A DNA stretch of 64,000 nt, taken from positions 558,001-622,000 of the forward strand of contig JANJGN010000140.1 of NCBI GenBank assembly GCA_026770705.1. The letters run 5' to 3'. Shown here one piece after another: positions 9,531-39,086 of this stretch; position 1 is the first letter of the stretch, and the number at the start of each line of letters is the position of its first letter. The DNA is from Isurus oxyrinchus. Lineage: Eukaryota. Below the pieces are notes generated by a model, which ran no database searches, was not told the origin of the DNA, and saw nothing but the letters and a program-made list of their open reading frames with translations. The position numbers were made by a program, and so were the translations under genes.

Positions 9531-9569
9531 CACACTGGTTTAAAACTCATCTGTGGCTATACAAAAACC
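9531..9569 (+). promoter_or_regulatory. 23-RSS
   Basis: CACACTG + 23 bp + ACAAAAACC. Confidence 0.9.
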
Positions 9570-35000: not shown

Positions 35001-35480
35001 AGTTAAGGGGGAACCAGTGCTTTTCAGGGGAACAGTAGTATTCCCTTGCTTTTAGGCTCTATGTCGCTGTTATGATGTCGATAATCCCGGATGTTTTAGC
35101 ACCACTTTCTCAGGCTGTCAGGCCACCTTCAACCATTTATGCCCAAAAAGTGCATACGCTTGTTGAAGAATGGATAATTGAATGAATTATTTTGGCGGGA
35201 GTACTGTAGGCGGCTCGAAGTATAAAAATATTAAAGGCTTTGCAGAGCCAGAAAGAACGTGCGAACTTGATGTGTTTAACGATTTTATTCTGTGACACAA
35301 AATTGTAAGGTCATTTGAAAATACATTCGTAGAGTGATTGCCTCCCCCCACACCCCTTCTCTGTGTGTGTGCATATGCGTGTGCGTGTCTGTGTGTGTGT
35401 ATATACGTGTGTGTGTGTATGCTCCTTTCAACTTAAACCCGAAAATGGACAATTATTTGAACTCTTTCTGTGTCTTGTAT

Positions 35481-35845
35481 CACTGTGTCTGTAATCCCAC
35501 CATGTTCAAGTTTTTGTACAGCTCTCTCCGTGCTCTATATCACTGTGTGTCTATAATCCCAACATGTTCATGGTTTTTGTATAGCTCTCTCCGTGCTCTG
35601 TATCACTGTGTGTCTGTAATCCCAACATGTTCATGGTTTTTGTACAGCTCTCTCCGTGCTCTGTATCACTGTTTGTCTGTAATCCCAGCATGTTAAGTTT
35701 TTGTACAGCTCTCTCCGCGCTCTGTATCACTGTTTGTCTGTAATCCCAGCATGTTAAGTTTTTGTACAGCGTCCTCCGGTTTCTGTATCACTGTGCACCA
35801 TGTTGAGGTTTTTGTACAGCTCCCTCTGTGTTCTGTATCACTGTG
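35481..35845 (-). repeat. Tandem array of 23-RSSs (50-63-bp units): six complete RSSs plus one extra heptamer
   Basis: Heptamers start (plus coordinates) at 35839, 35789, 35728, 35667, 35604, 35541 and 35481; nonamers ACAAAAAC(C/T) at 35807, 35757, 35696, 35635, 35572 and 35509, each exactly 23 bp from its heptamer. Confidence 0.95.
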
Positions 35846-36145
35846 CTGTGCGCCGACTCAGTTCACAGTAATAAACAGCGGAGTCGCTTAGTTGTAGTTC
35901 GGAGATCGTTAACCGGCTGATTTTCTCGGTAGAATCGATAGAAGCAGAAATTCTCCCCCCGGCAGCGTTTTCTTTATTCTCCTCTCCTGAAGTGCGTCTC
36001 TGAAGAAGGTATTCCGGAGCCTGTCCTGGGGACTGACGGTACCAGTGTACTGTGCAGAACCCTGAATATTCACAGTTTAAAGTAACGGTGTCACCGACAG
36101 CAGACGTTGGTAGAGGCGAAATCCTGGAAATTATGGAACTGGAAT
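35846..36145 (-). CDS. TRDV: Leaderless supporting TCR-delta V segment of NAR-TCR
   Basis: CCTACAG acceptor; open frame (D)SSSIISRISPLPTSAVGDTVTLNCEYSGFCTVHWYRQSPGQAPEYLL...RLTISELQLSDSAVYYCELSRRT; extra CDR1 Cys (36054-36056); no leader recognised; in phase with the upstream J donor; perfect 23-RSS at 35807-35845. Missed by the ORF track because it has no ATG. Confidence 0.92.
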
Positions 36146-37770: not shown

Positions 37771-37820
37771 CGGCTGTGACAGTCACCACCGTCCCGGATC
37801 CATCCGCATAATAATATTTC
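37771..37820 (-). CDS. NARTCR: NAR-TCR J segment
   Basis: KYYYADGSGTVVTVTA followed by phase-1 GTAAGT donor (37765-37770); IgNAR-like GxGTVVTV. Confidence 0.92.
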
Positions 37821-37859
37821 CACAGTGACTCCGCTCTCAGCGTCCCCGGTACAACAACC
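37821..37859 (+). promoter_or_regulatory. 23-RSS of NAR-TCR J
   Basis: CACAGTG + 23 bp + ACAACAACC, facing the D. Confidence 0.9.
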
Positions 37860-38173: not shown

Positions 38174-38246
38174 TGTATTTGCTCAGGTCTCTCCCACTGT
38201 GACTTCCCCATCCACCCACACAGTGTTACAAGTCAGTATAAAATCC
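38174..38246 (-). other. NARTCR: NAR-TCR D segment (17 nt, 38202-38218) flanked by two 12-RSSs
   Basis: Plus strand TGTATTTGC-12-CACTGTG [ACTTCCCCATCCACCCA] CACAGTG-12-ATAAAATCC; minus-strand D TGGGTGGATGGGGAAGT is open in all three frames (WVDGE, GWMGK, GGWGS). Confidence 0.9.
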
Positions 38247-38574: not shown

Positions 38575-38612
38575 AGTTTTTGCATTGCGGGAAGCCGAGA
38601 CCCATCACTGTG
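38575..38612 (-). promoter_or_regulatory. RSS of NAR-TCR V (22-bp spacer)
   Basis: CACAGTG + 22 bp + GCAAAAACT. Confidence 0.9.
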
Positions 38613-38895
38613 TATCTGTAGTACTGAGCTTTACAGTAATAGGTGGCGGTGTCCTCAACTCTCAATTCCCGAATTTCCAGCGAAAATGTATTTTGTGCTT
38701 TATTCACCGACACAACAAATCTCCCCCCGCTGGAGATCCGCTCCCGCTCTGTCCTGGTCTGGGTTTGCTTGAAGAAATGTCCCGTTTGGAAATAATGCCC
38801 CGAAGCACCGGAGAAAACACAGGTGATGGTGAGAGACTGACACTCCTTCCTGGTCACCGCTGCCGGGGTCTGTGTCACTGACTGACTGAAAGAGT
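38613..38895 (-). CDS. NARTCR: NAR-TCR V exon (IgNAR/VNAR-like domain)
   Basis: SFSQSVTQTPAAVTRKECQSLTITCVF...ERERISSGGRFVVSVNKAQNTFSLEIRELRVEDTATYYCKAQYYR; VNAR-type CDR2 deletion, ISxGGR motif, YYCKA, and extra FR1 Cys. Confidence 0.93.
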
Positions 38896-39043: not shown

Positions 39044-39086
39044 GGGGTAAACAGACACACAGCGTGAAAACAAGGAGGATTCCCAT
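39044..39086 (-). CDS. NARTCR: NAR-TCR V leader exon
   Basis: MGILLVFTLCVCLP + phase-1 GTGAGT donor, joining in frame to the exon at 38895. Confidence 0.9.

Follow-up and report, generated by a model that had tools for sequence, protein, structure and literature searches.

Germline joints at a shark NAR-TCR locus suggest RAG cutting of extra recombination signals behind the supporting V segment

The supporting V segment of a shark NAR-TCR cassette is followed by a tandem array of recombination signal sequences (RSS), the first of which (RSS1) carries a stop codon in the V frame. A join made at one of the more distal signals would be dead and would leave RSS1 intact beside the V. A fossil of this intermediate is inherited in the germ line and, together with a precise 12/23 signal joint in the same family, suggests that RAG probably cuts the distal signals, with RSS1 surviving. 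The distal signals show no purifying selection on their CAC, and their neutral-looking decay resembles that of unselected DNA. On balance, we read the array as an old, RSS-seeded minisatellite and the distal joins as by-products of an unselected repeat and not as a selected retry mechanism, a view held with some reserve. Likewise, the stop codon and the dead-end joints that could be re-edited are probably by-products rather than parts of a programmed retry system. NAR-TCR and germline joining are already known; what is added here is the fossil evidence for the use of extra signals and the test for selection on them.

The NAR-TCR cassette and the array behind its supporting V

NAR-TCR is described, in the available portions of three reports, as a doubly rearranging TCR-delta of cartilaginous fishes (PMC1845163, PMC12227049, PMC5931798). 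Its marks, as given in the accessible part of one of them, are a cysteine in the a-b loop, the absence of the WYRK tryptophan and a CDR1 cysteine in the supporting V (PMC1845163). The window, i.e. the whole stretch of 64,000 nucleotides of Isurus oxyrinchus DNA that was analysed (assembly GCA_026770705.1, contig JANJGN010000140.1, positions 558,001 to 622,000), contains, judged by its sequence, such a cassette on the minus strand. The leader exon (MGILLVFTLCVCLP; 39044..39086), with a GT donor directly after it, precedes an NAR-type V exon (38613..38895); both are open, and the V has the cysteine in the a-b loop, lacks the WYRK tryptophan and contains RKEC and GHFFKQ. Its top full-length PDB matches are shark VNAR domains (E 1e-19). 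Following the 3' RSS of the NAR V, which has a 22-bp spacer (38575..38612), the cassette has its own D and J ahead of the supporting V: a D region (38174..38246; D at 38218-38202) flanked on both sides by 12-RSS, and a J region (37771..37859; J at 37820-37771) with a 23-RSS at 37821 and a GT donor. The supporting TCR-delta V exon (35846..36145) has an open frame and the extra cysteine in CDR1 (YSGFCTVHW). This order of leader, NAR-type V, D and J, then a CDR1-Cys supporting V-delta that joins D-delta/J-delta, is the same as in the described portions of the NAR-TCR.

The supporting V is related to 51 predicted proteins, 50 of which are named as sharks, rays or a chimaera. In a contig from a relative's RNA-like run, the NAR V is joined to J, and this J is spliced straight onto the start of a supporting V. 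This J-to-V splice and the existence of fused predicted proteins indicate, indirectly, that the supporting V has no leader and is spliced to the NAR J. At window 36050-36060, the supporting V has two CDR1 residues fewer than most paralogues (GFCTVH vs GFCQYTVH), a trait common to its subfamily. The window also holds four remnants of conventional-type V segments with a single RSS (7714, 9531 and 18290 on the plus strand, 14409 on the minus strand); the exons of three have stops or frameshifts, and the one at 9531 is open and lacks the first tryptophan.

Read on the minus strand, the V frame ends in TGT GAA CTG AGT CGG CGC ACA GCA CAG TGA, with the coding boundary at 35846/35845 and the RSS1 heptamer beginning at 35845. 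The TGA (35838..35840) is composed of the TG of the heptamer and the first A of the spacer; it lies within RSS1 exactly where the original prediction had placed it and is the only stop before RSS2, so that distal joints of this V are indeed non-productive. The tandem array (35476-35846) comprises six heptamer-23-nonamer units, starting at 35845, 35795, 35734, 35673, 35610 and 35547 in steps of 50-63 bp. RSS1 (35807..35845), a consensus 23-RSS, is the sole signal yielding a productive V joint. RSS2 (35757..35795), 50 bp past RSS1, is a near-consensus 23-RSS, RSS3 and RSS4 (35635..35734) have the heptamer AACAGTG with a broken CAC, and RSS5 and RSS6 (35509..35610) are again consensus or near-consensus 23-RSS, leaving the CAC intact in four of the six RSS. 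A lone heptamer that has no nonamer (35481..35487) represents a decayed seventh unit. According to the accessible text of one study, CAC is needed for efficient recombination and its loss strongly lowers recombination (PMC2193808).

The TGA requires no special cause: it is made up of positions 6-7 of the heptamer and the first base of the spacer, in a phase set by the V end, and unrelated V segments in this genome likewise have stops inside or just past their RSS. The partial heptamer duplication pointed out earlier is present as CACAG at the coding end (35846..35850) and is found ahead of the heptamer in 66 of 77 paralogues, but it makes no signal, having no nonamer at usable spacing. The shifted heptamer CACAGCA was rejected as a second signal for the same reason, no nonamer being found at 11-13 or 22-24 bp (4-7 mismatches).

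Germline coding and signal joints

The contig of the window gave no match to C-delta; two matches were found, on contigs C26 and C242. The respective TCR-delta D-J-C units (C26:29,902-29,929 kb and C242:590-617 kb; L091, L092, L098-L100, L108-L111) are 84-93% alike and are either paralogues or divergent haplotypes. Each contains a single D, flanked 5' by a 12-RSS and 3' by a 23-RSS, as well as 11 J motifs, most of them with a recognisable 12-RSS; a third D with a decayed J1 lies downstream on C26 (C26:29,856 kb). Supporting-V cassettes are located up to about 10 Mb from D, in both orientations, and at least 77 copies were counted at C26:28.2-40.2 Mb and on C140, C151, C152, C210, C242 and C301.

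A search with D and its 3' flank returned 11 matches, i.e. three intact D regions and eight sites without the 5' side of D. In all eight truncated loci, the sequence runs from a supporting V through RSS1 and the array linker (20-21 of its 21 bases) to AGGAC and a D-type heptamer, after which come the D 3' spacer and the D-J1 interval. The D 5' 12-RSS and the distal 23-RSS are absent from these loci, and the D 3' RSS is kept. This is the V-RSS1-linker-D-delta allele that the original prediction had named as its support, here as eight germline copies of one event. RSS1 is retained beside the V in every copy, as was foreseen for a distal join, and at the level of the family these fossils place junctions away from the 35845/35846 boundary, to which all would be confined if RSS1 alone were used. 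Among themselves the copies are 95.4-99.5% alike, and their likeness to the three intact D regions is 82-84%, which makes them the descendants of one old, inherited event; two carry a later insertion. In one copy, followed over 20 kb, the D-J homology stops after about 1.9 kb, with no intact J motif beyond. The D 5' flank was matched solely at the three intact sites, among 40 of 2220 candidates scored.

At the fossil junction, 0-2 linker bases are lost, D is trimmed or joined through microhomology, and of P or N nucleotides, the mark of a hairpin intermediate, there is one untemplated base at most, in an old junction with two possible parsings. Both RSS are removed, the breakpoints lie at coding ends, the pairing is 12/23 and the trimming is small, as in a germline coding joint made by RAG. 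RAG-like joining in shark germ cells is described for Ig genes in the available portions of one study, where horned shark heavy chains with VD-only germline joints are also mentioned (PMC2193156). The present joints share with these the heritable, RAG-like character, the small deletions and, it seems, the little N addition. They differ in lying at a TCR locus, in having a non-coding linker as a coding end, in being dead with an intact RSS beside the V, and in being accompanied by a germline signal joint.

This signal joint lies at C26:29,964,813 (L114:4514-4527), where the 5' 12-RSS of an NAR D is fused heptamer to heptamer, losslessly, with an array 23-RSS, the precise 12/23 fusion that characterises a RAG signal joint. 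The cassette concerned has no D, J or supporting V. The joint is the single match of its kind on the locus contigs, and the nearest cassette is only 86-88% alike, from which the array unit used is not assignable. A search with the D 5' flank and a signal-joint pattern run on the locus contigs found no reciprocal D-delta signal joint.

Copies of the array and selection on the distal signals

The survey of this genome covers at least 77 supporting-V loci (60 pattern hits, three further loci, and 14 of 20 C26 regions picked via the linker), some of which are possibly haplotype copies, in 24 families at 95.5% identity. The V-end search pattern fixes the heptamer phase and thereby biases phase counts; among the 14 linker-found loci, the offset is 19 in 12 and 18 in two. 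Related copies are not independent, which makes all p values generous, and gapped segmentation shortened some arrays (177 distal units vs 197), affecting the rate, CAC-type, intact-exon and open-frame tests.

Two or more RSS units follow the supporting V in 63 of 77 loci and a single one in 14 (copy number 1-10), whereas 30 further 22/23-RSS hits from the window and from long stretches of the genome are all without a tandem RSS neighbour. The array at the supporting V is thus beyond chance. A near-consensus distal signal is retained in 44-51 of the 77 loci. At the position of the RSS1 stop, 72 paralogues have TGA and five have TGG. Just two of 143 distal CAC signals are in an open frame with the V, a number that rises to 53 if the TGA is ignored, and the TGA is the only stop ahead of 51; two TGG cassettes, L086 and L087, are open up to a CAC-bearing RSS2. 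The stop blocks long CDR3s, yet it is simply the canonical heptamer plus an A.

A simple intact-exon test is failed by 37 of the 77 loci. In L123, L127, L128 and L129, the supporting V is deleted from CDR1 into the first spacer and the arrays remain behind a V stump. At L113 (C26:29,872,902), one array-type 23-RSS and its linker stand without an upstream V. The array unit was rejected as a genome-wide repeat, the first 100 of 115 linker matches all lying on C26, C140, C151, C152 or C210. A 17-mer resembling the doubled heptamer has 81 of its 89 matches in a satellite-like region (C21:80.56-81.39 Mb; L139-L162) that is unrelated to the TCR locus.

The CAC is kept in first units at all 77 loci and in 163 of 197 distal units; counted by distinct type, it is broken in 0 of 46 first units vs 26 of 119 distal ones (Fisher p=0.0002). 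Substitution rates in distal units are 0.081 for CAC, 0.062 for the heptamer, 0.085 for the spacer, 0.076 for the nonamer and 0.097 for the linker, and 0.003 for the first-unit heptamer. Conservation of CAC above the spacer background, as expected of a selected RSS, is found for RSS1 and fails for the distal units. The distal CAC is no better conserved behind intact V exons, being broken in 23 of 100 vs 11 of 77 (p=0.18), and the spacer A that completes the TGA varies about like other spacer positions. If selection acted on the number of redundant signals, single ones would still decay. Array copy number does not vary systematically with the distance to D (rho -0.17, p=0.27), and the idea that array size tracks this distance was rejected. 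The deletion-oriented cassettes on C26 have more units (median 5 vs 2), with p=0.002 by locus and p=0.17 by V family. The 23-bp spacer is kept in 166 of 177 distal units, with five indel types in spacers vs 19 in linkers; such retention of spacer length would also be expected from re-seeding by RSS1 and from end effects.

In other species, 27 of the 51 related predicted proteins stop at the same place as the RSS1 TGA. Among 22 longer protein tails tested, five align into a second unit of the array (two from whale shark, one each from zebra shark and sawshark, and one from a further contig) and three cover little beyond RSS1. Array units are also seen as DNA in contigs of two other organisms. 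These read-through proteins and contigs show that the array is old and that the stop is common, though not universal. In five carpet-shark proteins (P0033, P0041, P0043, P0046, P0049), RSS1 seems to lie in another frame, about four bases further from the Cys, with the TGA out of frame, as judged from the proteins alone. One relative's contig has the V trimmed by three bases at RSS1 and joined in frame to a D-like segment and J1, i.e. a one-step joint (n=1). No distal or D-less somatic joint was seen, but repeat matches dominate when four RNA-like runs are compared with the D-J region, leaving no power for junction partners. No RNA data set containing this stretch was listed, and a metagenome scan contained no relative among 591 pattern matches. 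In run X2, the contig that matches window 35585-35623 is a 90-base array-unit contig of another organism, with a depth of 586 vs about 4 for its neighbours.

Origin and use of the array

The exact breakpoint of the fossil coding joint is ambiguous, since linker and D share GGGATTA(C), 7-8 bases of microhomology at the junction, which would make a non-RAG deletion possible. The fossils would then be ordinary microhomology deletions, and the distal signals would hardly ever be cut; non-RAG deletions that truncate a supporting V into the array do exist (L123, L127-L129). We nevertheless consider this origin very unlikely. On one side the break lies inside a D of 12-17 bases, on the other no more than two bases from a distal heptamer position. 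In 200 kb there are 33 occurrences of the shared 7-mer, by extrapolation about 2000 in 12 Mb with two of these being D segments, so that a microhomology deletion is unlikely to hit D by chance (about 1 in 1000 by this extrapolation). Moreover, the lossless heptamer-to-heptamer 12/23 joint is a hallmark of RAG. If the signals are cut, distal joins could lengthen CDR3 where the stop is missing, extending the supporting domain by about 20 residues encoded in the linker. The stop is missing in the five TGG paralogues, including L086 and L087 with their open frame to RSS2, and the read-through tails of other sharks agree with this. Such lengthening is, however, impossible for the V of the window, as it is at 141 of 143 distal CAC signals; no transcript of this kind was seen, and with 27 of 51 related proteins ending at the stop it is hardly credible as the role of the array.

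The extra signals might instead be adaptive by helping RAG to capture a far cassette, the dead join bringing it near D/J and the delta enhancer, and a D-less RSS1-J join following. Long and specific retention of an array can signal selection, and the predicted intermediate exists in the germ line, the 11 J motifs past D, most with a recognisable 12-RSS, remain available, cassettes can be as far as about 10 Mb from D in both orientations, the array is old and specific to the supporting V, more than half of the loci (44-51 of 77) retain a near-consensus distal signal, and distal spacer length is mostly preserved. Against this stand a distal CAC that mutates at the rate of the spacer, a copy number indifferent to distance with 14 of 77 loci having a single signal, the one-step RSS1-D-J joint in the sole relevant RNA-like contig, and a germline supporting-V-to-J joint that was not found with one exact pattern. 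We regard such capture as doubtful. A fuller version, in which a megabase-far cassette docks on D-delta by a distal signal, is silenced by the TGA and is then completed by a D-less RSS1-to-J join, with the 62-bp unit itself a relic of germline RAG activity, seems unlikely. Distal signals could also act as decoys that soak up the single D of each D-J-C unit, lowering or delaying NAR-TCR output or aiding allelic exclusion, with the product killed by the TGA; in deletion-oriented cassettes the distal signals are nearer to D, and by locus count there are more units there. Counted by family, the orientation effect loses its significance, the distal CAC shows no selection and RSS1 remains available, which renders a decoy function highly improbable.

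Under the preferred reading, in which the array is an old minisatellite and joins at its distal units are by-products, the 62-bp repeat behind the supporting V would have begun with an ancestral duplication of RSS1, and unequal exchange or tandem duplication would re-seed the array from its one selected unit, which may be why it stays RSS-like. RAG would occasionally cut intact extra signals, which would leave a dead V-RSS1-linker-D-delta joint with RSS1 still usable or, through the NAR D, destroy the cassette. RAG would have made the fossil junctions in germ cells, and the same distal joins may also form in thymocytes. Productive chains would arise from RSS1, and dead transcripts would presumably be removed, the TGA being a premature stop. 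Rescue after a distal join would consist of one D-less RSS1-to-J join. As the distal join spends the sole D 5' RSS, a second join at RSS1 must go to J, deleting D, and this is 12/23-legal since 11 J motifs follow D in each unit. The serial rearrangement originally proposed is to this extent upheld, with a legal second join and a germline intermediate, but no second-step product was found. The several attempts that it was thought to offer do not follow. RSS1 alone abuts the V coding end and is usable once, so that each cassette has one productive try, to which the array adds none. Nor can the distal signals rescue a failed RSS1 join: they lie 3' of RSS1 and are lost once it is used, so that the new productive joint after failure that defines receptor editing is not obtained.

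Signals that lack a coding segment and make non-productive, locus-reshaping joints are familiar from deltaRec/psi-J-alpha and the kappa-deleting element, which are single, conserved and programmed. The array differs from both in consisting of variable tandem copies that decay. As described in the accessible portions of work on V-alpha/J-alpha receptor editing (PMC5931798) and on VH replacement at a 3' cryptic RSS (PMC3526766), a first joint there also leaves a signal for a second 12/23-legal joint. Editing and VH replacement, however, swap a failed joint for a new V or J and thereby add productive attempts, whereas the distal signals of the array precede RSS1 and add none. The available portions of the NAR-TCR reports make no mention of multiple RSS behind the supporting V or of germline joints from them (PMC1845163, PMC12227049, PMC5931798). 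Among titles and abstract openings no description of a tandem RSS array behind a V was found in the literature; the primary NAR-TCR papers and supplements lie outside this coverage and may show it.

Antigen-receptor V segments usually have a single signal. A stack of signals behind the only V class for which two rearrangements are required offers a natural way to test RAG's choice between neighbours. Within the material checked, the fossil joints give the first sign that such extra signals get cut, and they extend germ-cell recombination in sharks from Ig genes to a TCR locus. Distal use would leave a clear signature in linker-D joints and in supporting-V junctions without D, as there is a single D with 11 J and the linker is known. 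Should the stack prove neutral, it would be a case of a minisatellite that grew from a selected RSS and, through germline RAG, erodes the locus in which it lies.

The linker itself hints, more speculatively, at an origin of the array unit in a germline join. Compared with the first 12 bases of D-delta, the linker's 3' half is identical at 10 of 12 positions, a likeness noticed post hoc that was reached by 114 of 200000 shuffles in register and by 169 of 20000 in any register, and this half is absent from the plain flank behind eight terminal signals. It is this match and its absence from plain flank that point to such an origin. The D-like half is seen, for example, at window 35488-35508, and it is exactly the part missing from the 50-bp unit.
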